DNA from: Escherichia phage BUCT-XGG-1
Length of the DNA: 49,653 nucleotides
Sequence record: PP069513
Direction: 5' to 3' (one strand)
A program made the position numbers and the translations under genes. The notes beneath the pieces are model-generated. The model ran no database searches. It was not told where the DNA came from and worked only from the letters and a program-made list of their open reading frames with translations. Of the stretch, positions 9,147 through 41,529 are shown piece after piece (the first letter of the stretch is position 1; each line of letters begins with the position of its first letter).

Positions 9147-9192
9147 ATAATACACCACCTCACCGATTCGTCTTTAGCAATTAGTGCTATTC
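9147..9192 (-). promoter_or_regulatory. box promoter candidate
   Basis: Box ATAGCACTAATTGCTAAA (9173-9192) supplying NSTNC-stop of 9174..9602; TATTAT at 9147-9152 (22-bp gap); leader CATCGAAACGAA. Confidence 0.5.
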
Positions 9193-9602
9193 AGCATATC
9201 AGCAACGGCTTTCTTGTATTCCTCCTGGCCGTACGCCACCGCCGCGAATCCGCCACGCTCTCGGACACGCCGGAGGAAATCTTTCTGCTCCTTACTGACT
9301 GGTGATGCCTTTCCTTTTCCGCTCTTATTGACGCGCTTTAATTCTATGGCTCCGAAAGGATATTTACCGAACGGACCTAGAAGGAATACAAAGTCACTAA
9401 CCCCCTTCAATAACCCGCTCTGAGCATCCTTTAACGCCGTGTGGATGTGCTTCTTGTTCTCATTAACGGCGTGCCAGAACAGCAAATCACCATGCCTAAC
9501 CTTCGTCCAAGTCACGCAATCTACTTGGTGCTTGCTTTCCGTCCATGTGTCAGATTTGTCTGGCGTGTAATATTCAATGTAATCTATTTTATCGGTTTTC
9601 AT
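9174..9602 (-). CDS. VRR-NUC domain nuclease
   Basis: GVSDFVF ... AIELKR pattern matching VRR-NUC PD-(D/E)xK core. Confidence 0.55.
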   Translation of the reverse strand: MKTDKIDYIEYYTPDKSDTWTESKHQVDCVTWTKVRHGDLLFWHAVNENKKHIHTALKDAQSGLLKGVSDFVFLLGPFGKYPFGAIELKRVNKSGKGKASPVSKEQKDFLRRVRERGGFAAVAYGQEEYKKAVADMLNSTNC

Positions 9603-10081
9603 TTTTTCGCTCCGTGGTTTTTATGGAACCCATTGGTTGACTCTGTAAGTTTTCTTGCTGAGATTGCATCGGCAAGTGACCTTCCTTCGTATAGGAATTT
9701 TTTCTTACCGCCAATCTGTATCTGTGCTACCCATGTCTTATTCCTTGACTTCCAGTTAACTCCTGTAACTCCGCTTTTGTTGTTTGAATACATCGACTTG
9801 TTAAGCATGTTATCGCCGCGACTAACAAGCCTTAAGTTTTCTATTCTATTATCAGTTCTTATGTGGTTTATGTGGTCAACCTCCATTCCGTTCGGCATTG
9901 GTCCGTTATGCATTACCCAAACTATGACGTGAGCGGGTTATGACTTCTTTTTGTACATGACTTTAATGTAACCTTCGCTGTCTATAGTGCCGGCTAAGTC
10001 TCCCTCATACACCTTTGCGCTGGGCTTTATAGCCCAGAATAATAATCCATTTTTATAATTCAGTATGTTATTAAAAATCAT
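9599..10081 (-). pseudogene. HNH-AP2 homing endonuclease interrupted by in-frame TAA
   Basis: ATG at 10081 (ATGA overlap with helicase stop) gives MIFNNILNYKNG...YKKKS then TAA at 9938-9940, then in frame PAHVIVWVMHNG...DHINHIRTDNRIENLRLV; full-length paralogs at 17492, 36060, 12801. Confidence 0.6.
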
Positions 10082-12180
10082 AAGTTACCGTCCAATCCGA
10101 AATCCTTACGTGAGATAATATCCTCACCTTTTGCATTCTTGCGGTGAGTTACCCGCACCGGATGTGCTATGTGGTGAGCGTTGTTTAAAATCATTTTCGC
10201 ACTTCTGTAAGCTGCCATTAATTTTGCGATCTTACTGTCATGCACGTGAGGTAATACCCCTTTTTGTTTCCATATCGTGTGGCATACCTGCGCCGTTGAC
10301 TGAGGGAAGAACTTCTCATACGCGATGAAATTAACTCCCACTGAGTCTGTTAGGTCGTAACGATAAAGAATACCAGTCTGATTGCGTGTCAGCGTTACTT
10401 CAAAACTGTTCACTGTGCACCAGTCGTTTTTGGTGTAAGCCTTACCAGTCAGATTATCATTTGGATCTTTCAGACTCACGTCACAGCAACGGCATATTCT
10501 CGCCACTACGTCATTCTCAGCGCCACATCCCTTAACGATAACCTCACCAGTGCGATCATCAACCTGATCCTCACAAATACGAGACTTCCAGAAATACTCA
10601 CAACGATTGCCGTTTTCGTCCCTGTGAATGCAGCGGCGGGCGTAAAAGCTGTTCTCGGTTCCGCACAGTTCACATTTTTTCGTCTCTTTCTTACCATCGA
10701 AGCGGCGCTGGTACTGAGCCTCTTCAAGAATCGGATCGAAGTAAAGCTGACCAAGCTCATCCATCGTGCCAGCGAAATCCCATACCAAGTGATCTTCTTT
10801 CACCATTCCCATCGCTTTTTGCCACGGCTTAAGCAATCGCATACCTCGACCAAGCAACTGTATTAGCAGGGTAAGTGAGCCGATCTTGCGCATGATTACC
10901 GAAAAATCCCAAAACGGAACGTTAACGCCAGTGGTTAGCGCTAACACCTGGAATATGTATTTGATCTCGCCACGGTTCGCCGCCTCCAGTATCGCTTGTC
11001 GTTTTTTGGTGTTCGTCTTCTCCGTGATGATCTCATAGGTAGCGTCAGGTGGCAGATAGCTCGCCGCCTCTTTGCAATGGCGCTGGCCTGAACACGTAAT
11101 CAGTACACCATTTCGCTTCTTCGCCTCTTCGACTACCATTCCCATTATTCGCTTGGTCATGCTGGCGTTATCATGGATTTTCTTCTCCATCGCCTTCATT
11201 TCTTTCTGACCGAAGTCAGCCGTTCCATCCTGACTGGACGCCTTAAACTCATCCAGATCATATCCAGCGTCACCGACACTTCCGAAGATTGTTGGAACAA
11301 CAGAGCCGAACTCAATCAGGTAGCTGGTGTCGATGTTAGTAACCTGCTCACGCCAGAATCCTGGAAGCTTAGGGTTATCGACAACAATTGGCGCTGTTCC
11401 TCTGAACTCCGAACCAGTCATGCCGAAGATGCGTAATTCCTTCCCGTTCTTCTCTTTGCAGCGGCGCATCAATTCAGTGATTATGATCGTGTACTGGCTT
11501 CGTTTTGTTCCAAGAACAGGCTCGCCAGTCTTCCGGCTTATCAGCAATTGCTTATCCATCACCTGAACGCCAACCTCTACGCCATCAAGGTATCCATTGA
11601 CATAACCTTCGCTGTTTTTCGGGTAGTCAACGAATACACGCTCATCCTTTTCAGTGAGCATCATTTCAATCGTCTCTTCGTTGTCGATGGCGGCGGCAAG
11701 GTCTTCCCAATCCACCTGGTGACATTCATCAATACCCAGCACCATAGGTGTAAAATCACCAAGCGCCTTAAACAGACCGTTCGCAACCGAACCTTCCGAA
11801 CCGACAACGATAGGGAAGTAAGCTGATTTTGTGTTCAGTCCAGCACAGTAAACTGAGTTAGGAACACCGAAGTTTGAGATCTCCTCACTATCCTGAGCGA
11901 CTATATCGCCCTGACGCGCCAGTATCATCATCGACAGGCCCATTTCTTTTACGCGCGATGCAATCATGGCAAAGCCGATCGTCTTACCTGCCGACACTGA
12001 CGCTTTAACGATGAATGGATGCTTATAGCGAGCAATGCGCTTGCCGATCTCGTCATACATTACGCACTGATACTCATAAGGAACCATGTCGCCAAATGTG
12101 AATTTATCCTGAATCTCTTTAATCTTTTGCGGGCCAAGTTCTTCTATCTGTTTTTTAATGGATTTAATGCGCATAGCCAT
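10078..12180 (-). CDS. SF2 DExH-box helicase with C-terminal Cys-rich region
   Basis: Walker A SAGKT, DECH box (GIDECHQ), C-terminal CxxC zinc-finger-like clusters. Confidence 0.8.
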   Translation of the reverse strand: MAMRIKSIKKQIEELGPQKIKEIQDKFTFGDMVPYEYQCVMYDEIGKRIARYKHPFIVKASVSAGKTIGFAMIASRVKEMGLSMMILARQGDIVAQDSEEISNFGVPNSVYCAGLNTKSAYFPIVVGSEGSVANGLFKALGDFTPMVLGIDECHQVDWEDLAAAIDNEETIEMMLTEKDERVFVDYPKNSEGYVNGYLDGVEVGVQVMDKQLLISRKTGEPVLGTKRSQYTIIITELMRRCKEKNGKELRIFGMTGSEFRGTAPIVVDNPKLPGFWREQVTNIDTSYLIEFGSVVPTIFGSVGDAGYDLDEFKASSQDGTADFGQKEMKAMEKKIHDNASMTKRIMGMVVEEAKKRNGVLITCSGQRHCKEAASYLPPDATYEIITEKTNTKKRQAILEAANRGEIKYIFQVLALTTGVNVPFWDFSVIMRKIGSLTLLIQLLGRGMRLLKPWQKAMGMVKEDHLVWDFAGTMDELGQLYFDPILEEAQYQRRFDGKKETKKCELCGTENSFYARRCIHRDENGNRCEYFWKSRICEDQVDDRTGEVIVKGCGAENDVVARICRCCDVSLKDPNDNLTGKAYTKNDWCTVNSFEVTLTRNQTGILYRYDLTDSVGVNFIAYEKFFPQSTAQVCHTIWKQKGVLPHVHDSKIAKLMAAYRSAKMILNNAHHIAHPVRVTHRKNAKGEDIISRKDFGLDGNL

Positions 12181-12754: not shown

Positions 12755-12787
12755 GGTTGTGCCATAATTGGTGCAACCTTTTTTTAT
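12755..12787 (+). terminator. intrinsic terminator
   Basis: GGTTGTGCCA TAAT TGGTGCAACC (two G.U pairs) followed by T7. Confidence 0.5.
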
Positions 12788-12800
12788 TGGAGTAAATACA

Positions 12801-13247
12801 GTGAAGATATTAAGATTTTTGTATCTATATAAAGATGGTAATTTAATTCGATGCTACAGGGCTGGGAGGCACGCGCCTGGAGAAGTAGCAGGCACTGCTC
12901 ATATCTCAGGTTACATTCATGTTGGCGTGCTAGGGAAAATAATGAAAGCGCATAGGGTTTCATGGTGGATAAACTATGGCTTCATACCTGATCATTTGCA
13001 TATAGACCACAAAAATCACATTAGGAGTGATAACAGAATAGAAAACCTTGAATTGAAAAGTAACGCCGAGAATCACAAAAACATGTCTATATATAAAAAC
13101 AATAAGAGTGGAACTCATGGCGTTAGATGGAATAGAAAATTCTCAAGGTGGGACGTAAACATCGTAGTTAATGGCAAAAAGTGCTACGTTGGAGTTTTCA
13201 AGTCTCTTTCTGCCGCAGTAGATGCTAAGATTAAAGCAGAAATATAA
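12801..13247 (+). CDS. HNH-AP2 homing endonuclease
   Basis: GTG start after GGAG RBS; HxxH..N..H HNH core (HIDHKNHIRSDNRIENL) and AP2-like tail; start moved downstream of terminator. Confidence 0.7.
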   Translation: MKILRFLYLYKDGNLIRCYRAGRHAPGEVAGTAHISGYIHVGVLGKIMKAHRVSWWINYGFIPDHLHIDHKNHIRSDNRIENLELKSNAENHKNMSIYKNNKSGTHGVRWNRKFSRWDVNIVVNGKKCYVGVFKSLSAAVDAKIKAEI

Positions 13248-14312: not shown

Positions 14313-16232
14313 ATGGCAATTTACAGAACTGGTACTGCCTCGCTGGCTGCAAACGGCGTGGTAATTGGTGTAGGGACAAAGTGGCAGGACAAGTTATCTC
14401 TGATCCGTGTCGGAGCTACGATCATGTTTCCAACCGTAGTTGGGGCTATTGGCACTATCTCGGCAATAGTTAGCGATACAGAATTGCGAGTTATGACGAC
14501 GAACGGCTCTGTAGTTCCTGCCGGATCTCAATACGTCATCCTGCTTCACGATTCAATTACGGTTGATGGCTTGGCCCAGGACGTAGCGGAAACACTGCGA
14601 TACTACCAAAGCAAAGAAACTGAGGTTGCCGAAGCGATTGACTTCTTCAAAACGTTCGATTGGGAGCAATTCAAGGTTGTTGCTGACAATGTTACGGCTG
14701 ATGCAGCGGCGGCTAACGCAAGTAAGAACGCAGCGGCGGCATCTCAGACTGCGGCTAAGACGTCAGAGAATAACGCTAAGAATTACGCCGATAGCATTAA
14801 CCCGTCTCTTTTGCTGGCTAAAAACCAGAACCTTGCAGATCTTGCTAACAAGGATACGGCAAGATCTAACATTGGTCTTGATCGATTCTTCCAGCTCATT
14901 GGCGCTGGCGAAACTCGAGTAAAAAGCGGAGATGCTTCAAAATGGGTGTTTGTTAAAGATAACGGTGATTGGGGATGTTGGGATTCTACAACAAGCAAAG
15001 CTAAAGCGCTTGCGTTGCCATTTGGCGGAACTGGCGCGAGTGACGCGGCAGGTGCGCGGACTAACTTTGATGTTTACAGCAAGGAGGAATCACTTGACGC
15101 AGTTGGCATTGGAGCATCGCCAAGGCATATTGCAGACATGGCTGATATTCCGAAAGGGTTTGCTCGAATTGTAGACGGATCAACAACTGGAGGGATTAGC
15201 GGATTCACTGGTGCTGGTTGGATTGCTCAGGTTGACGGATCGCAAAGTTATGCTGGGATGTTTGTACAGCCTGACGGTAACAGGGTTTTTGCTGGGGGGC
15301 AAAACATTGGTTCGTCATGGTCGTGGCATGAAATCCCAACACTTGACAGAAACAACCAATTTAAGGGTGACATTGAAATACTTAGAGAGTGGCCAGGGCT
15401 TAGGTTGTCAGTTGCATCCGCTGCGCAAGATGATATTGGCGGACAAATACATGTAGAGAACAACGGAAAGAGTAGTCTAAACATTTACTTCACTAGGAAG
15501 GATGGAAATACTGACGGAAGGAGCAAAATAGCAATAGAAAGACCACCTAGCGAGGTGCTGCTTTTTATGGGCATGAATGGTGGGCTGGCTCCTAATGGCA
15601 CTAATGATTACTTATTTTCTGGTAACAATTTCAACGTTCAGCCTCAAGGTTGGCGTAATGTTGGTGGCCCATACACTAACGGACCAACATCCGGAAGTGT
15701 TTATGGCTCTTTGTTCACTCAGTGCACGCAAGGTTTATACTTGGGGAACTCTCCTGATGTTAACCCTAATCAAGTGTGGTGGCAGCAAAGGTTCTTTGAT
15801 ACAAATAACAGGATCTTTACAAGGGTTAACACCAACAAAGGAGCTTGGGGAGGGTGGGCTCAGTTAACGACAAGCGCCGTGTCTGATGAGCGACTCAAGA
15901 ATGTACTGGGTAGTTTGAACGTAGAAGGCGCACTGGACAACATCAACCGGATGGAGTTCAAACTTTTTAAATTCAAAGAGGAACAGGTAGAGGGCAAGGA
16001 ACCTACGTTACGACGTGGTGTTATTTCTCAGCAATTGAGATTGATTGACAAGGAATACACCAAGGAAATTGGCGGTTATTATCACCTTGACCAAACTCCG
16101 ATGCTTCTTGATGGCCTTGCTGCAATTAAGGCATTAAGAGAAAGGGATGAGGATAACAAAGTGAGAATTGCAAAACTTGAATCTGATATTGAGGAATTGA
16201 AGGCGATGGTTTTAGCATTGAGTAGCAAATAA
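14313..16232 (+). CDS. tail fibre with C-terminal intramolecular chaperone (peptidase S74-like)
   Basis: C-terminal AVSDERLKNVLG motif of self-cleaving chaperone domains; Ala-rich shaft; start at ATG 14313 after AAAGAGG RBS. Confidence 0.8.
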   Translation: MAIYRTGTASLAANGVVIGVGTKWQDKLSLIRVGATIMFPTVVGAIGTISAIVSDTELRVMTTNGSVVPAGSQYVILLHDSITVDGLAQDVAETLRYYQSKETEVAEAIDFFKTFDWEQFKVVADNVTADAAAANASKNAAAASQTAAKTSENNAKNYADSINPSLLLAKNQNLADLANKDTARSNIGLDRFFQLIGAGETRVKSGDASKWVFVKDNGDWGCWDSTTSKAKALALPFGGTGASDAAGARTNFDVYSKEESLDAVGIGASPRHIADMADIPKGFARIVDGSTTGGISGFTGAGWIAQVDGSQSYAGMFVQPDGNRVFAGGQNIGSSWSWHEIPTLDRNNQFKGDIEILREWPGLRLSVASAAQDDIGGQIHVENNGKSSLNIYFTRKDGNTDGRSKIAIERPPSEVLLFMGMNGGLAPNGTNDYLFSGNNFNVQPQGWRNVGGPYTNGPTSGSVYGSLFTQCTQGLYLGNSPDVNPNQVWWQQRFFDTNNRIFTRVNTNKGAWGGWAQLTTSAVSDERLKNVLGSLNVEGALDNINRMEFKLFKFKEEQVEGKEPTLRRGVISQQLRLIDKEYTKEIGGYYHLDQTPMLLDGLAAIKALRERDEDNKVRIAKLESDIEELKAMVLALSSK

Positions 16233-17452: not shown

Positions 17453-17495
17453 ATTATAGCAAATCACCGCGTTCGTGTTTAGCAAAAAGTGCTAC
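17453..17495 (-). promoter_or_regulatory. box promoter candidate
   Basis: Box GTAGCACTTTTTGCTAAA (17478-17495) containing TAG stop of HNH gene; hairpin CGGTGATT..AATCACCG holding TGCTATAAT (21-bp gap). Confidence 0.5.
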
Positions 17496-17950
17496 CTGCC
17501 ATGCCTTAAAGTAAAATCACCATTCATTGAGATGTATCTTTCCCTTGCCTCTTTCGCTTCAATTGCCGTGTTGAAACTACCAAGGCTTTTCTGCACTCCA
17601 TTTACCTTTACCCTTGCGTTCCATTTACATCTTTGCTTAACAAAAACAACACCTGTGAATCCTGATGTGTTATTTGACTGCATCTTTTTATTTTTATTGT
17701 TGATGGCTCTAGTTACAAGTCTTAGGTTTTCAATCCTGTTATCACTTCTTATTCCGTTAATGTGGTCTATCTCGTAACCTTCTGGTATAGGTCCGTAGTG
17801 CATTTCCCATATAACCCTATGATATAGAAACTTCACATAGTTAAATGAGATCATTAAGTACCCGTTACCTTTCGGTGTTCCGGCAATCTTGCCGCTTTTT
17901 ATCCAGTAAAGGTTGCCGTCTATGTATTTTAATTTCTCATTGAAATTCAT
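17492..17950 (-). CDS. HNH-AP2 homing endonuclease
   Basis: EIDHINGIRSDNRIENLRLV HNH core and AP2-like C-terminal region; inserted between exonuclease and Erf. Confidence 0.8.
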   Translation of the reverse strand: MNFNEKLKYIDGNLYWIKSGKIAGTPKGNGYLMISFNYVKFLYHRVIWEMHYGPIPEGYEIDHINGIRSDNRIENLRLVTRAINNKNKKMQSNNTSGFTGVVFVKQRCKWNARVKVNGVQKSLGSFNTAIEAKEARERYISMNGDFTLRHGR

Positions 17951-20890: not shown

Positions 20891-23800
20891 TTAGTAAGAG
20901 CCAGTCAAACGTCCGATCTGAACTCTAAGCATACCAGAACCATCTGCAACCGATATAGTTTGGTTTGTTTGTTTCATCTTGCCCTCTCCAGATGTTGAGC
21001 CGTTATTCTCGAATGTACCCCCTTTGTCAAGCCTCCAACCAGTCTGACCTGCAACATAGTTGTTGGACTCAATCTCGTTACCGATTTTTGCGTTGGTAAT
21101 GGAGCCATTCTTGATGAATGCGTCACGCATAAATACCTGCGAACCTTCAATAAGGAACGGGAACTGCGCCAGAGTTCCGCCAGAAATCCTACCGACTGCG
21201 AACCTGTCAACGTCAAACAATACCTGTGCTTTCGGTGCCGATTCGCTGCCAACTAACTGCATACCGAACCCAGCATTGTACTCAACGCCGTCGCGCTTAA
21301 TACCCAGCTTGACGGTGTACGTTGAACCTACCGAACCGTTATCAATCCACGAGTCAAGTTTCTGGCTTACCGTCGCTGCCGCCTGATTCGCCGTGTTCTC
21401 CGCATTACCTGCCGCAGTGTTAGCCGCGTTTGCTTTCGCTTCAACCTGAGTGATTGCCGATGCCCTGGCGCTTGCCTCATCTGCGATTGCTTTATCCACT
21501 CGCGTGATTGATGCCTGAGTCTCAGTTTTTAAATCGCCAACCTGCTTAGTAAACTTGGTGTCGAGTGCCGTAATTGCCTGCGCTCTAGCCATGCTCTCAT
21601 TGGTGATTGCCTCATCCAAACGACCGATGCTTGCGTTAGTCGTAGTGGTAAGGTCGCCTACCTGCTTAGTGAACTTAGCATCAAGCTCCTGTACTGCCTT
21701 CACCCGCGCTTCCGTTTCTGTCGCCACCGCTTCCTTAATGGTAGTGATCTGGCCCTGAATGTCATCACCGATGCTTGCTCTCAGTTCTTCGATTGCAGCG
21801 ACGCGTGCCTCAGTCTCAGTAGCGATAAGTTCTACAGCGTGACCATACTCAGCCTTACGAAGTCCATTCTGTTTCCTGGTCCAAATCAGGTTGTAATCGT
21901 TAGCCAGGGCGTTGTGAATATCCGCCTGCGCCTGCTCCCTGATCTTGTTTGCGCTTTCGATTGTGCTTTCAGCAAGCTCCTTGAAGATCTCAGAGTTTTC
22001 AATGTCAATCTTAACGACGTCCATAATCTGATCCGCATCATCCGAAGCCATACCCCTGACAAAATCAGTCCATTCAGACACGTTACCGATCCTGTCAACC
22101 GATCGGATTCTGTACCAGTCAACGTAACCAGCCGGAAGAACGCTGTGCCAGTATTCGTACTGCGGATAAGGGATCAGCGTAAGCAGTGATGAATCACTAA
22201 CCTGACCTGACGGCGATTGATGCAATTCAATGTAGGCCGTATCCTCTGTTCCCGCTGGCATACCCCATTTCACGCGAATGCCGAATACTTCGTCCGTACT
22301 GGCTGTCAGGTTAATTGGTTTGCCTGGTGCGCCAATCTTGCCTGTCAACCCAACACTCACAACCTCAGACCATGGAGACGCATTCTCTCCGCTTGAGATG
22401 CTCCTTACGCGTACGTGATAATTGCCTGCGTAAATCCCTTCAACCTCGACTTCTTTGTTTGCTGTGCGCGGTACGTTCATCCAGTTGCCATTGTCCTTGC
22501 GCCACTGCACATCGTACTTGCTCGCGTACTGCACTTTATCCCATGAGATGACCATAGTTTCTACGCTCATTCCCTGGACAATCCTTGAGTATGAAGACGC
22601 CTTGATATTTTTAGGCGGCTGCATGTTGTCAGGATCTACAATGCTGGTTGGTCGGTCATCAATATTTACGCCGTAGTCGATTTCGTCGTATTTGTTCGGA
22701 TCGTATTCAACTGCCGTGATGCTGTATGTGAACTCATCATCTCCGTCGCCCTTCGTGATTCCGGTTACAACGTATTGCTGCAAGGCCACATCAGTGCGGT
22801 CGATTGCGAACACTGTGTTGGGTTGAACATCAAAGCCGAATCCAATGTTAAGCTCAATGGTTTTCCCGTCCGCAGATACTTTTGAAATCGTCCGACGCAC
22901 CGGATTTCCGTCAGCCTTGTTCACGATAATGAAATCACCAGCGCGCGCATCGACCTTAAAGTGTGTGAACACTTGCAGGCCTGACACTTCCATTACACGA
23001 CCTGATAACGAAAGCGTCAGATTGCTTGACCAGAAGTTATCAGCGATTGCTACCACGTCGCCAATCATCGGAATCATACCCTCAAGGCCAGTTGCAAAAC
23101 TCACCGTTGTGCTGCGAAGGTTTGTTTTGAGAACCCAGCGGCCCCGTCGATTCGCTTCACTGCGTCGAGTACATCCGATCGCCGTAATGCTTGTCGGGTT
23201 ATGCCCGAAGCGTAACGAAGCGTTAAGGTCGAACACCCCCTCAATGTCTTGGCTGTACATGTTCTGCTCATCGTCGAACGTGACGTTGCATGTTGTGTAC
23301 ATGCTTTTTTCACTTGCGAACGTATAGGCAAATGAGCCATCAACGACGTTATCGTTAGTAAAAATATACGACGCCTCTCTCGGTCGGTCGATGACAATTG
23401 AAAGGCTCTCGCCGTTCCAGAAGCTCATTCCTCGGAATATTGAGCAAATGTCTCGCACAAGATTGTACGCTTCAACCTGAGATTGAATAACTACATCGCA
23501 AAGATAGCGAGGCTCTGTTCCGCCGTGACCGTCTGGCACTTTCTGGTCGCAGTATTGACCAGCGTCATATAGTGACCACTTATCAACTGCAATCCCCAAT
23601 TCACGTTGGTCGAGTCCGTAGCGCTGATTGGTGATCAAATCATAAAGCACCCACGCCGGATTATTTGACCACGCTTTTTTGAAGCTGCCATCCCATGTGC
23701 CGTTATACTCGCGAAGCTCTGGATTATAGTTGCTCGGAACGTTAATGAGCTTCCATTTCTTTTTCGTGCTAATGCTTGGGATCTGCGTGAATAGCTCGCT

Positions 23801-24499
23801 GTTAAACTCGACGTAAACAAGACCAGTCAGAGGGTAACGGAATTTAGCATCAACCACTTCGGCATAAGACTGAATGTTTATCGTATCAACGACGCGCGCA
23901 TCAGTTGAATCAGCCGTAACTCGGCGCACACGCAATAGAACCTGGCTATTGAACGTTGGTAGGTCGATTCGCTTTGTTTTGTCATATCCGCTAATTGTCT
24001 TTCCGTCGATTACGTCCGATAAAACCTCTTGGTAGCTCCCGCCATCAACCGCCATATCTACGGCCCACTTCACGACCACGCCGACCATATCGCCGTTTTC
24101 TTTCGTGGTAACGCCGCGAGGCATCAGGATTTTGACGCGTACGGCTGATAGCTGTTTATTCGTTACCGAGATCACGTAGGGCGTCGTTGTTTTCAATTCA
24201 CGACCTACAGTAAATTCAGCCGCCGTGTCGTTGAAGCCTTTGATGTAATCCTGTGTCTGAGTACCAGGTCTGAACTCAGCCGTTACTCCTTCATAGTTAA
24301 CCTCGCCGGAAGGTGCAATTACAGGAACATCATTAAGATACAAGTCCTTTAATGAGAAATTAGCATCAACCTCGCCATCACTGACAGCGAGTAAAACCTT
24401 AATCTTGTTGATTGAGATCAGGTTATCTTCCATCTCCTGTGGGGTATGCGGCTTGCTGCTGCCACCCTTTCGGCCAGTCACTACATTATTTTTAATCAT
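20891..24499 (-). CDS. tail tip/central fibre protein (lambda J-like host specificity protein)
   Basis: 1202 aa, follows M-L-K-I homologues; fibronectin-III-like segments and imperfect ~35-39-aa repeats (TETEARV, FTKQVGDL). Confidence 0.8.
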   Translation of the reverse strand: MIKNNVVTGRKGGSSKPHTPQEMEDNLISINKIKVLLAVSDGEVDANFSLKDLYLNDVPVIAPSGEVNYEGVTAEFRPGTQTQDYIKGFNDTAAEFTVGRELKTTTPYVISVTNKQLSAVRVKILMPRGVTTKENGDMVGVVVKWAVDMAVDGGSYQEVLSDVIDGKTISGYDKTKRIDLPTFNSQVLLRVRRVTADSTDARVVDTINIQSYAEVVDAKFRYPLTGLVYVEFNSELFTQIPSISTKKKWKLINVPSNYNPELREYNGTWDGSFKKAWSNNPAWVLYDLITNQRYGLDQRELGIAVDKWSLYDAGQYCDQKVPDGHGGTEPRYLCDVVIQSQVEAYNLVRDICSIFRGMSFWNGESLSIVIDRPREASYIFTNDNVVDGSFAYTFASEKSMYTTCNVTFDDEQNMYSQDIEGVFDLNASLRFGHNPTSITAIGCTRRSEANRRGRWVLKTNLRSTTVSFATGLEGMIPMIGDVVAIADNFWSSNLTLSLSGRVMEVSGLQVFTHFKVDARAGDFIIVNKADGNPVRRTISKVSADGKTIELNIGFGFDVQPNTVFAIDRTDVALQQYVVTGITKGDGDDEFTYSITAVEYDPNKYDEIDYGVNIDDRPTSIVDPDNMQPPKNIKASSYSRIVQGMSVETMVISWDKVQYASKYDVQWRKDNGNWMNVPRTANKEVEVEGIYAGNYHVRVRSISSGENASPWSEVVSVGLTGKIGAPGKPINLTASTDEVFGIRVKWGMPAGTEDTAYIELHQSPSGQVSDSSLLTLIPYPQYEYWHSVLPAGYVDWYRIRSVDRIGNVSEWTDFVRGMASDDADQIMDVVKIDIENSEIFKELAESTIESANKIREQAQADIHNALANDYNLIWTRKQNGLRKAEYGHAVELIATETEARVAAIEELRASIGDDIQGQITTIKEAVATETEARVKAVQELDAKFTKQVGDLTTTTNASIGRLDEAITNESMARAQAITALDTKFTKQVGDLKTETQASITRVDKAIADEASARASAITQVEAKANAANTAAGNAENTANQAAATVSQKLDSWIDNGSVGSTYTVKLGIKRDGVEYNAGFGMQLVGSESAPKAQVLFDVDRFAVGRISGGTLAQFPFLIEGSQVFMRDAFIKNGSITNAKIGNEIESNNYVAGQTGWRLDKGGTFENNGSTSGEGKMKQTNQTISVADGSGMLRVQIGRLTGSY

Positions 24500-33354: not shown

Positions 33355-34300
33355 AAGCGGCTGTGATACCCTTCATCACAGCGATGGTCAGCGGTCGGTA
33401 GATTACCAGTCCAGTGGTTTTGGATGTAACAGGCACTTTGAAGTGCAGATCTTTCGGCTGCATAGGCAGCGCGTTAGTCGCCTCAGGGATCTCAATGCTC
33501 ATGTTCATCGGATCGTATTCGTAAGCCAGTGCAGCTTTGCCACCTGCGCCATCGTAATCATCAAGAAGCGCAAGATACTGTAGCTCAACACCTGGGTTGT
33601 TCTTGGTGTACAGTTCTTGATAACTAACTGTGGTATTCGGAGCCAGTTGCTGCATCAGGCGACGCATTGAAGCAGGCAGAAGAATACGGTTTGCACGGTG
33701 GAAGCCTTGAGTTGCAGTCTCGATACTGTCGATAAGACGAGTAATATCGTTGCTTGCAACCTCTGGGCTTGTCCACGCGCCAGTAGGCGTTACCTGGTTT
33801 ACGTTGGAGGCCTCGAACACGCTCTTAATACCATGCGGAGCGGAACCTTTCCATACCAGCTTATCAAGCAGGTTGTCGTGAGCCTCAAAAGCTATGTTTT
33901 GCTTACGAGTCTGCAAGCTGTTACCAAGAGCAGCGCCAGCTTTGATTTCGTCGATTGAGATCAGATAGGCGTTACCGAAACGGAATACTTTACCTTGCTT
34001 CTCTGTCATCAGCGCATCAACCAGCGGCAGGTCGTCAGAGTAATCTGCGACAATCTGCGCTACACCTACTGCGTCCAGTTCGGGGTATTCGAAATACTTA
34101 GCATGGCTAGGAATTTCGTTGCTAACAGGGAACAAGTTAACTACGGAGGTGGTAGGGTAATCACGCTCATAGACACGCTTCAACTGAGCGGTTAACTGCT
34201 TAACAGTCCAGATGCCAACAGCGTCAGCCTTATCAACGCCAGAGCGGCGAAGGTGGCTAGTGATTTCGTTTAGTTCGAAAGAGTCTAATTTCATGGTCAT
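33353..34300 (-). CDS. major capsid protein
   Basis: 315 aa, preceded by strong promoter and followed by strong terminator; position after scaffold and decoration-like genes. Confidence 0.7.
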   Translation of the reverse strand: MTMKLDSFELNEITSHLRRSGVDKADAVGIWTVKQLTAQLKRVYERDYPTTSVVNLFPVSNEIPSHAKYFEYPELDAVGVAQIVADYSDDLPLVDALMTEKQGKVFRFGNAYLISIDEIKAGAALGNSLQTRKQNIAFEAHDNLLDKLVWKGSAPHGIKSVFEASNVNQVTPTGAWTSPEVASNDITRLIDSIETATQGFHRANRILLPASMRRLMQQLAPNTTVSYQELYTKNNPGVELQYLALLDDYDGAGGKAALAYEYDPMNMSIEIPEATNALPMQPKDLHFKVPVTSKTTGLVIYRPLTIAVMKGITAA

Positions 34301-34334
34301 TTTAAATTTCCTTTTGGGTTAATGTACGTGATTG

Positions 34335-34364
34335 ATTATACATTGCTGAGCCTGCGGATTGCAA
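34335..34364 (-). promoter_or_regulatory. sigma70-type promoter (TTGCAA-N18-TGnTATAAT)
   Basis: Minus strand TTGCAA at 34359-34364, 18-bp spacer, TG-extended TATAAT at 34335-34340, then RBS and capsid ATG. Confidence 0.5.
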
Positions 34365-34399
34365 TAGTGGGTAGAATATTTATTTTATCTTAATTGATC

Positions 34400-34420
34400 A
34401 AAAAACCTCCCGAAGGAGGT
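34400..34420 (-). terminator. intrinsic terminator
   Basis: ACCTCC TTCG GGAGGT with T6 on minus strand after 34438..34914. Confidence 0.55.
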
Positions 34421-34437
34421 CTTTGTTTTTATACCAA

Positions 34438-34914
34438 TTACTTCTGCAGTAACTGAACTTCAACAAGCGCTGGCTCGCCAGACACTGCATCAGCCGCCTG
34501 GAATCCACCAGCCGCAGTACCAAGAGCAAAGTCAGCAGCACCAGCGACGGTTGAACTTGCAATACCAGATGCGTTAACGGTGATTGCTGAGCCAAATGCC
34601 GGGGCAGCGTCTAAGCTAGTTTGAACCCAGATTCGACCATGTGTCATTACGTTTGCCACTTGGTAATTATCAATATCACCAGCTGCACCGCCATAAGTTC
34701 CTTTTGGTGATTCGTAGTGCGATTTAACCAGAACGCCGTATACACTTTCAGCTGACGGAGCGGCCAGTACTTTGTGACCATCAACAACAGAGCTAACCCC
34801 AACAGCCGTACCAACCTGACGAACCAAGCTGGATGACATTGCGCAAGCACCATCAATGTTATAAAGGGAAGTATCTGCGATCATGCCCGCAGTGGCTTGA
34901 CGACGAATTGCCAT
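34438..34914 (-). CDS. capsid decoration-like protein (putative)
   Basis: Gly/Ala/Val-rich 158-aa protein between scaffold and capsid genes (lambda D-like position). Confidence 0.4.
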   Translation of the reverse strand: MAIRRQATAGMIADTSLYNIDGACAMSSSLVRQVGTAVGVSSVVDGHKVLAAPSAESVYGVLVKSHYESPKGTYGGAAGDIDNYQVANVMTHGRIWVQTSLDAAPAFGSAITVNASGIASSTVAGAADFALGTAAGGFQAADAVSGEPALVEVQLLQK

Positions 34915-34926
34915 GATATTTTATCC

Positions 34927-36063
34927 TTACTTTTTGTTAATTAATTTTTTCAGTCGATCTTGCGGATCAAATGATTCGTTTTCTTTACCGTCAGATTTGT
35001 CGGCAGTGCCGAAAACCTTAACGCGCTGAGCGGCCATTTTATCAGACTCTTTAGCCAAATCAAAGGCAGCTTCGATGTACGAGTCAGATTTCTCAGTAGC
35101 ATCAATACCAGAAACCTCCTTGATGTAGGCAACCTTAATTTCTTTTGCGCCAAGTCCATCGCACTTAATGCCAATCTCACCAGCAATAGCAACCAGGCCA
35201 GCCAGCTCATCAGCGTCAGCTTTTGCTTTAGCAACAGCGGCTTCGATCTGTGCTGGAATGCCATCCACTTTAACTTTCAGAGCGTCGCGCTCAGCTTCAA
35301 TTTCGCTAACCTTTTTCTTTTCTGCATCTGCATCTGCCTTGATGGATGCGATGTGGTCAGCTACGTCTTTTGACACTTCCACTTCTGCGGAATCAATTTT
35401 GATTTTTACGGTCATTTTACTTTCCTCTTTTGGTAATTGAACATGCTCATCATATTTAATTTCTTCTGAGCCGTCAAGGTTTAATCTGGCAATACCTGCG
35501 CGACCGTGCTTTACCTTGGCGACGTGGTTTGGGATGATGTTCGTTTGCAGCACGTCAAACTCTTCCCACTCGTCGGTCATGACGGTTCCGTTAGGGAATT
35601 GCGCCTCCATTCCCTCAGCGTCATCCTTGAAAACATACTCGCCAGTATTGACGTTTCCCCACCCTTCGCGGTGAATGTCATTGGTCTTGTAACCAACCGA
35701 CAATTCTGCGGCGTCGCCACGCTTGGCGGATTCAATTGATTCCTTGTCGTGAATTACGATCGGACACTTCAAGCCAATACCATCACGACGACCAGCGCCG
35801 GATAGTGAGCCGACAACAATCTTCCGCGCGTTGCTTGTGCTTACTTCCTGGTGGCCCTCTACGATCGGCATACCGCGAAACAGTTCCATCGCCTCGGCCT
35901 TGAACACTTCGTTTGCTGGTCGGAACTCACGCTGAATTGTTCCATCGGCACGCATATATTCCTGAATACCGATTCGCGCAATGATTGGCTCATCATGCAT
36001 GAATCCGTTAGAGTCAAAGCGTGCTTTCAGTTGCACGCTATCGTATCGTTGCTTAGTGGTCAT
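34927..36063 (-). CDS. prohead scaffold / protease-like protein
   Basis: 378 aa with Ala/Lys/Glu/Asp-rich helical C-terminal half typical of scaffolds. Confidence 0.5.
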   Translation of the reverse strand: MTTKQRYDSVQLKARFDSNGFMHDEPIIARIGIQEYMRADGTIQREFRPANEVFKAEAMELFRGMPIVEGHQEVSTSNARKIVVGSLSGAGRRDGIGLKCPIVIHDKESIESAKRGDAAELSVGYKTNDIHREGWGNVNTGEYVFKDDAEGMEAQFPNGTVMTDEWEEFDVLQTNIIPNHVAKVKHGRAGIARLNLDGSEEIKYDEHVQLPKEESKMTVKIKIDSAEVEVSKDVADHIASIKADADAEKKKVSEIEAERDALKVKVDGIPAQIEAAVAKAKADADELAGLVAIAGEIGIKCDGLGAKEIKVAYIKEVSGIDATEKSDSYIEAAFDLAKESDKMAAQRVKVFGTADKSDGKENESFDPQDRLKKLINKK

Positions 36064-36545
36064 TTTTTACTCCCGTGATTTTTATGAAATTTATATACAG
36101 ACTCCGCAACCTTTCTTGCAGAGATTGCGTCATCTTTTCTATCGTATCTACCAAGGAATTTCTCCTTTTTGTCCACCCTTATTGAAGCAATCCATTTACT
36201 GGTTCTATTACACCAGCTAACGCCAACAACTCCGCTTTTGTTTGACTTGCTCATGGATACGTTTTTGCAATTCTCTTGTCTAGTAGTTACGAGCCTTAGG
36301 TTTTCTATCCTGTTATCATCTCTGATATGGTTTATATGGTCAATCTCCATTCCTTCAGGTATTTTACCATGGTGCATCTCCCATATTACCCTATGAGCCG
36401 GAGTTAGCCTACCCATAATCCTAACGTAAATATATCCACCCTCATCCTTCCAGCCAGCCATATCGCCAACTTTAACCCTTTTCGATGTCGGATTTTTCCA
36501 GATGAGATCTTTCTCTATATGATAAAAATAATCATTGAAATTCAT
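36060..36545 (-). CDS. HNH-AP2 homing endonuclease
   Basis: EIDHINHIRDDNRIENLRLV core and AP2-like tail; inserted between head morphogenesis and scaffold genes with 4-nt overlaps. Confidence 0.8.
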   Translation of the reverse strand: MNFNDYFYHIEKDLIWKNPTSKRVKVGDMAGWKDEGGYIYVRIMGRLTPAHRVIWEMHHGKIPEGMEIDHINHIRDDNRIENLRLVTTRQENCKNVSMSKSNKSGVVGVSWCNRTSKWIASIRVDKKEKFLGRYDRKDDAISARKVAESVYKFHKNHGSKK

Positions 36546-41452: not shown

Positions 41453-41529
41453 TGGCGTTCAGCGCTGGACTCGAACCAGCAACTAAGACTTAGGAGGTCT
41501 TTGCGTTATCCTGTTAACGCCAGCAGAAC
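41453..41529 (-). tRNA. tRNA-Arg (anticodon CCU)
   Basis: Hand-folded cloverleaf: D stem GCGT/ACGC, anticodon stem AAGAC/GTCTT, loop CU-CCU-AA, T arm GCTGG-TTCGAGT-CCAGC, encoded CCA; acceptor stem has one U.U mismatch. Confidence 0.65.

Follow-up and report, generated by a model that had tools for sequence, protein, structure and literature searches.

The helicase/VRR-NUC junction of Escherichia phage BUCT-XGG-1 carries a homing endonuclease gene that, with a probability of roughly 0.76, was recently inactivated by a nonsense mutation and is now a very young pseudogene. The window referred to throughout is the whole 49,653-nucleotide stretch of sequence record PP069513. Recent inactivation is favoured because near-identical intact orthologues of the gene exist and because each of the three changes found only in the window copy is non-synonymous. 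A preliminary description of the locus had proposed three options, namely recent inactivation, a sequencing error, or expression of the C-terminal 104 amino acids only. This was the right set, and the options can now be ranked, with recent inactivation clearly ahead. The features of the locus are the following.

9599..10081, minus strand: HNH_3 + AP2 homing endonuclease gene, disrupted by TAA at codon 48; 160 codon positions and a terminal stop; collinear with intact orthologues, without indels
9938..9940, minus strand: codon 48 as an in-frame TAA, in place of the orthologues' TAC (Tyr); base 9938 is changed from C to A in the coding strand, hence from G to T in the plus strand
9941..10081, minus strand: N-terminal 47 codons; first beta-hairpin and most of the second, in the I-HmuI-like N-terminal region
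9599..9913, minus strand: residual 104-aa ORF from the Met57 codon; beta-beta-alpha-metal core and AP2 domain kept
10078..10081, minus strand: ATGA overlap of helicase stop and endonuclease start; the same ATGA joins helicase to VRR-NUC in element-free phages
9599..9602, minus strand: ATGA overlap of endonuclease stop and VRR-NUC start; the GGAG Shine-Dalgarno sequence for VRR-NUC lies inside the endonuclease 3' end
9756, minus strand: window-specific S109N, codon 109 AGC to AAC; variable position
9646, minus strand: window-specific A146T, codon 146 GCA to ACA; AP2 helix; Ala in 39 of 45 relatives, Thr in none
9174..9602, minus strand: VRR-NUC nuclease gene, downstream neighbour, 142 aa (PF08774, E = 6e-10)
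9300..9598, minus strand: putative co-conversion tract, 5' part of VRR-NUC; up to 32% divergence per 50 bp from P817, 97-100% identity with element carriers
10078..12180, minus strand: 700-aa helicase gene, upstream neighbour; Helicase_C, with ResIII slightly under its Pfam cutoff

The minus strand was read from 9450 to 10250. The ATG at 10081-10079 overlaps the helicase TGA at 10080-10078 through an ATGA, the helicase ORF ending in GGT AAC TTA TGA. The ORF that starts at this ATG comprises 47 sense codons, MIFNNILNYKNGLLFWAIKPSAKVYEGDLAGTIDSEGYIKVMYKKKS, followed by the TAA at 9940-9938. Past this stop, the zero frame is open for 112 codons (PAHVIVWVMHNGPMPNGMEVDHINH...HKNHGAKK) up to the TGA at 9601-9599, which overlaps the VRR-NUC ATG (9602) through a second ATGA. 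The first in-frame start after the TAA is the ATG at 9913, which opens an ORF of 104 aa. On re-reading, every coordinate given earlier for the start at 10081, its coupling to the helicase, the 47 codons, the stop at 9938-9940 and the in-frame continuation was borne out. The same holds for the internal ATG at 9913 and its 104-aa product, which is the protein annotated in GenBank: the annotation at the locus consists of this downstream ORF only (WVX93023.1, "HNH homing endonucleas" [Escherichia phage BUCT-XGG-1]).

For the identification of the gene, a repaired protein of 160 aa was obtained from the window sequence by placing Tyr at codon 48. Its residues 48-92 match the Pfam family HNH_3 with E = 5e-21. 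Given that the repaired protein matches both this profile and an intact orthologue (E = 1.6e-90), a chance ORF is excluded. Among the 46 relatives aligned, D69, N78 and N82 are invariant and H70 is near-invariant. The AP2 domain is less directly visible: the repaired protein alone scores 12.6 bits against a Pfam cut-off of 33.3, whereas 40 of the 46 aligned relatives match AP2 (E <= 1; best 1.3e-8), and the family profile matches the AP2 domain of WRI1 with E = 4e-4. Positions 1-98 of the same profile align to residues 1-103 of I-HmuI (PDB 1U3E) with E = 7e-8.

The fold was examined in an AlphaFold model of the intact orthologue P0001, which is 88% identical to the window protein (pLDDT 89.6). 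The model presents N-terminal beta-hairpins at 7-16 and 39-49 (strands 7-10, 13-16, 39-43 and 46-49), a helix at 50-59, and a beta-beta-alpha-metal unit formed by strands 66-70 and 83-87 and helix 88-92. Residues 108-149 form three strands and a helix of AP2 type, and match the AP2 structures of TEM1 and ERF1 with a probability of 0.99-1.00. The best PDB matches of the model found by Foldseek are I-HmuI, at the top with E = 9e-4, and plant and Plasmodium AP2 domains. From sequence profiles and the predicted fold, we assign the gene as a free-standing HNH_3 + AP2 homing endonuclease gene with an I-HmuI-like N-terminus, and the window copy as a disrupted allele of it, in which the frame over the domains is interrupted by the TAA at codon 48. 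The HNH-AP2 identity proposed in the preliminary description was therefore upheld, with the correction that the AP2 domain of the window protein itself is below the Pfam threshold and rests on the family profile and the predicted fold.

The intact 160-aa orthologue P0001 was found in a large protein collection, with 88% identity and E = 1.6e-90, and its 90% cluster contains at least 13 distinct full-length alleles of 160-163 aa. In these alleles residue 48 is Tyr in all but one, which has His; among the wider relatives, Tyr is present in 28 of 45. Orthologue contigs have the same gene order as the window, i.e., helicase (695-700 aa), 160-aa HNH, 142-aa VRR-NUC, a 90-aa gene and Dam. In comparison with the closest DNA orthologues (L011-L014), the window gene differs at 8-11 of 483 bases, with no indels. 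Codon 48 is TAC in all five DNA orthologues (L007, L011, L012, L013 and L014). As these have TAC and none has indels, the stop is explained by one C-to-A transversion at 9938. That a single nucleotide change could explain the stop had been suggested earlier and agrees with this result, and the comparison with related phages proposed at the time finds intact alleles with TAC at the same locus in related contigs.

The same TAA was not found in a second genome, either by protein-pattern or by DNA-pattern scans of IMG/VR, and a metagenome DNA-pattern scan that allowed any base at the third codon position yielded no TAA allele elsewhere. Exact look-ups of the 104-aa and 47-aa products returned no second carrier. 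Megablast and blastn searches returned no close copy of the allele among GenBank phages, the best match being Klebsiella phage Opt-817 with 66% amino acid identity; the close orthologues came from the large protein collection only.

The substitutions in the gene were compared between the window and the 87%-identical L007, and the changed codons comprise 31 synonymous and 20 non-synonymous ones. These values indicate purifying selection over most of the gene's history. The changes unique to the window copy, in turn, are Y48*, S109N and A146T, i.e., three non-synonymous and none synonymous, a count too small for significance. On the sequence, this pattern would fit relaxed constraint after a recent inactivation.

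BUCT-XGG-1 is a Nouzillyvirus-like phage of the Drexlerviridae, and its closest GenBank phages are P817, GaoY1-9D and CJ19 (genus Nouzillyvirus), with about 92% identity across some two-thirds of the window's first 25 kb. The element is absent in CJ19 and P817, where the helicase is joined to VRR-NUC through the same ATGA, and its absence in 50EP, PH1062 and p111 is implied by the geometry of the matches. Relative to P817, the insertion is 482 bp long. Other alleles occupy the same site in further relatives. ETEP102 (L002:1687-2184) has another HNH-AP2 allele at the helicase/VRR-NUC site, intact, of 165 aa and distantly similar in DNA. GaoY1-9D (PP971806.1, L001:1693-2194) has a different HNH-AP2 allele there, also only distantly similar at the DNA level, in which a frameshift near codon 33 leaves ORFs of 47 aa and 136 aa, both annotated as hypothetical proteins. 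The closest homologues in GenBank, from Webervirus Opt-817 (Klebsiella), Tunavirus S2_02 and LHE71, have 59-66% amino acid identity and are likewise located between a helicase gene and a VRR-NUC or resolvase gene.

The flanks of the element are also informative. The gene and about 150-300 bp of flank are 97-100% identical to the element carriers L011 and L012, and farther out the identity is 88-94%. Against the element-free P817, the region 9300-9598 presents 6-16 mismatches per 50 bp, compared with 1-7 per 50 bp elsewhere. The intact element is, as the sequence comparisons show, an apparently mobile cassette that is present or absent at one precise site and is linked to about 250-300 bp of the VRR-NUC 5' end. 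The flank pattern is as would be expected from homing with co-conversion, from which cleavage and homing by the intact orthologues may be inferred. The divergence tract is asymmetric, with no such peak on the helicase side.

Among the relatives, HNH genes are also found at other sites, for example ahead of the helicase gene in L011:7389-7895 or, in P817, between the genes for spanin and lysin. The complement of such elements therefore differs between phages.

Judging from what is known of homing endonucleases, the course of events may be as follows. The intact enzyme would cut or nick the empty junction in a mixed infection, and during repair the recipient would acquire a copy of the gene together with adjacent flank. 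In this isolate, a C-to-A transversion would have turned Tyr48 from TAC into TAA. Ribosomes coming from the helicase ORF would make only a 47-residue fragment with the N-terminal hairpins, and nothing else is expected from the native helicase-coupled start. Some ribosomes may re-initiate at the conserved Met57 codon, which follows the stop by 24 nt, and give a 104-aa fragment. The window copy would thus stand at the first stage of the cycle of gain, decay and loss of homing endonuclease genes.

The Shine-Dalgarno energy is -6.8 kcal/mol at the native start and -5.8 kcal/mol at the VRR-NUC start, the latter with a GGAG. As VRR-NUC has this ribosome-binding site of its own, its translation probably survives. 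The 104-aa ORF is without positions 1-9 of the HNH_3 profile, both N-terminal hairpins and most of helix 50-59, and is also missing Y38, H51 and W55, which are invariant or near-invariant in the relatives. Given these losses in the sequence and the model, the nuclease function of the 104-aa fragment has most probably been lost, while DNA binding mediated by its AP2 domain might remain. In I-HmuI, the N-terminal sheet contacts DNA beside the active site (1U3E structure).

Further lesions in related HNH-AP2 genes surfaced as short matches in the protein search, and are listed below. Those at other phage loci are in more distant genes, each with one in-frame stop and the remainder of the gene intact.

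L017:1086-1445, L018:1240-1599 and L019:1009-1368: same orthologous locus, codon 31 GGA/GGC to TGA (G31*), rest intact; stop about 30 codons after the ATGA start
L016:1300-1839: W16*, TGG to TGA at codon 16; 7 contigs, other phage locus
L020:800-1291: TGA in place of GGA, with the ATG of MQVDH following directly; 6 contigs, other phage locus
L022:810-1345 and L023:180-714: TAA immediately ahead of the AHR motif, with an ATG two codons later; 20 contigs, other phage loci
GaoY1-9D: frameshift in a different allele at the helicase/VRR-NUC site; ORFs of 47 aa and 136 aa, one genome

The G31* allele, which is present in three assemblies (JGI 3300006879, ERZ27252336 and SRR5699024) that possibly derive from one underlying sample, is a second, independent nonsense allele at the helicase/VRR-NUC locus, and arose by a G:C to T:A transversion, as did the stop in the window. 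All lesions found lie in the N-terminal 40% of the gene. About 5-6 disruptions are N-terminal, against two candidate C-terminal truncations (P0061 and P0067); as the cases were ascertained from fragments of at least about 93 aa, the expected ratio is near 1:1, and the difference is not significant. Hence, given this ascertainment and the two C-terminal candidates, the recurrence of such stops, though striking, and their N-terminal bias cannot be told apart statistically from ordinary decay. It is very improbable that the N-terminal stops, seen in at least five lineages (Y48*, G31*, W16*, L020 and L022/L023), constitute a tolerated or selected state based on termination and re-initiation. If this were true, a truncated protein with the HNH core and AP2 could serve as a DNA-binding factor that blocks related endonucleases or regulates the neighbouring genes, with the nuclease toxicity removed. 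What the cases do show, as far as assembled sequences tell, is that broken HNH-AP2 genes appear to be common and to persist in circulating phages. A genuine mutation in the window thereby gains in plausibility, and becomes more ordinary too.

Under a sequencing or assembly error, codon 48 of the phage would in truth be TAC (Tyr), and its 160-aa enzyme would be intact and active; alternatively, the stop could be a variant from laboratory propagation. We consider an error unlikely, even though only one base separates the window from the intact alleles, the TAA allele is in no other assembly scanned, and two more singleton changes are located within the same 483 bp. Changes from G to T or from C to A are also a known class of oxidative-damage artefact, which counts in favour of an error; against it, a deep phage consensus rarely contains substitution errors. 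Of the P817 proteins, 63 have a match in the window, and no in-frame stop or change of frame was seen in any of these (61 match over nearly their whole length, and the other two match divergent genes in part). As all 63 common genes are unbroken, a generally error-prone assembly is unlikely, and low overall quality was rejected as an explanation. Moreover, independent in-frame stops occur in related genes of other assemblies, some of them on 6-20 contigs, so that alleles of this kind exist in nature. A different proposal accepts the stop as real and assigns a role to the 104-aa product of re-initiation at ATG 9913, with its HNH core and AP2 domain: it could be a DNA-binding protein or a weakened nuclease, or its translation could keep ribosomes on the mRNA and spare VRR-NUC from polarity. 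The ATG follows the stop in frame at a distance of 24 nt, the fragment keeps the beta-beta-alpha-metal motif and the entire AP2 domain, and four other lineages combine a single stop in the N-terminal 40% with an uninterrupted ORF downstream, three of them with an ATG at most 10 codons further on. However, Met57 is ancestral, being present in 36 of 45 relatives, rather than a newly evolved start. The Shine-Dalgarno sequence before ATG 9913 is weak (-3.7 kcal/mol, the 34th percentile of all ATGs on the minus strand), and no strong promoter or ribosome-binding site was found for the 104-aa ORF. The start is located inside helix 50-59, so the product lacks Y38, H51 and W55, and A146T affects a conserved AP2 position in the window copy. 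VRR-NUC has its own GGAG, and the N-terminal bias of the disruptions is not significant given how the cases were found. Because conserved N-terminal elements are missing and the ribosome-binding site is weak, a functional 104-aa product is quite unlikely.

Programmed or suppressor-mediated readthrough of the TAA, which would yield full-length enzyme at a low level and throttle a toxic nuclease, can be regarded as extremely unlikely. A C follows the stop, which makes for a comparatively weak context of termination, although this is documented mainly for UGA; among the stop codons of E. coli, UAA terminates most efficiently. Nor is the stop conserved, since codon 48 is a sense codon in every orthologue compared (TAC in the five DNA orthologues, and His in one protein allele). 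A suppressor tRNA was rejected, for the sole tRNA gene of the genome is tRNA-Arg (CCT), at 41453-41529 on the minus strand. A recoding RNA structure was rejected as well: the 121 nt that surround and follow the stop fold no better than their shuffled controls (z = +1.22), the tendency being towards less structure. The AAAAAG run immediately ahead of the stop was also considered as a site of -1 frameshifting, which was rejected because the downstream ORF is in the zero frame and such a shift would not rescue it.

Homing endonucleases that combine HNH and AP2 are a recognised class, found in phages, cyanobacteria and protists (Magnani et al. 2004, as cited in PMC10448857). Boundaries of genetic exchange are where nuclease genes of phages are located, and the 'IPA-HNH' genes of vibriophage ICP1 include a frameshift-inactivated HNH+AP2 copy, gp115-gp116 (PMC10448857). 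The flank divergence pattern described here matches the published observation of nuclease genes at exchange boundaries (PMC10448857). As in the window, the ICP1 genes have an N-terminal HNH and a C-terminal AP2 domain, are free-standing between conserved phage genes at an exchange boundary, and include an inactivated copy. The lesion differs, however, being a nonsense codon in the window and a frameshift in ICP1, and the HNH domains of ICP1 are too divergent for the HNH_3 profile, whereas that of the window is canonical HNH_3 (E = 5e-21). In the literature, we found no biochemical test of any member of the Drexlerviridae helicase/VRR-NUC lineage.

In comparison with I-HmuI of Bacillus phage SPO1 (1U3E), the family shares N-terminal beta-hairpins followed by the HNH beta-beta-alpha-metal motif, yet sequence identity is only about 22%. 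I-HmuI is an intron-encoded nicking enzyme whose C-terminal domain is a helix-turn-helix rather than AP2. The textbook life cycle of homing endonucleases runs through invasion, degeneration and loss, as reportedly described by Goddard and Burt in 1999. Once a nuclease gene is fixed, or no empty targets are left, it escapes selection and gathers inactivating mutations. An example is the truncated I-TevIII of T4, compared with the full-length version of RB3. Both in this model and here, empty sites, intact copies and broken copies exist side by side among close relatives, although life-cycle examples such as I-TevIII are intron-associated, whereas the window element is free-standing and translationally coupled to both neighbours. 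The window gene is a new broken allele of a known HNH + AP2 family, and its state is probably one of ordinary decay.

The main consequence is for annotation: what is entered as a 104-aa "HNH homing endonuclease" is the end of a gene of 160 codons that one base has broken, and the entry needs a flag as a pseudogene or disrupted gene. Within a single phage group, the locus also neatly illustrates how homing endonuclease genes come and go: one junction presents empty sites, intact copies, two independent nonsense alleles, a frameshifted allele of a different HNH gene and what appears to be a clear co-conversion tract. There is no obvious consequence for phage engineering or therapy, and current understanding is unchallenged.

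The window contains three paralogues of the disrupted gene.

12768..13247, plus strand: HNH-AP2 paralogue with a start at TTG 12768 or GTG 12801, between a gene of 157-160 aa and the primase gene; shorter C-terminus; 38% identity to the repaired protein
17492..17950, minus strand: intact HNH-AP2 paralogue of 152 aa, between the exonuclease and ERF-like genes; 44% identity to the repaired protein
36060..36545, minus strand: intact HNH-AP2 paralogue of 161 aa, between genes of the capsid region; 51% identity to the repaired protein

The preliminary description had reported these as three full-length paralogues. All three do exist, but the one given as 12801..13247 is on the plus strand, has a non-ATG start and is shorter at its C-terminus.

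Regarding the remainder of the genome, the tail-fibre, host-specificity J-like and capsid-region genes at 14313-14675, 20993-24499 and 33359-36063 have 40-76% amino acid identity to P817, partly in partial matches. Judged by sequence, the divergence of these regions indicates a probable mosaic exchange of structural and host-range modules. Over most of the remaining genome, identity to P817 is mostly above 90%.
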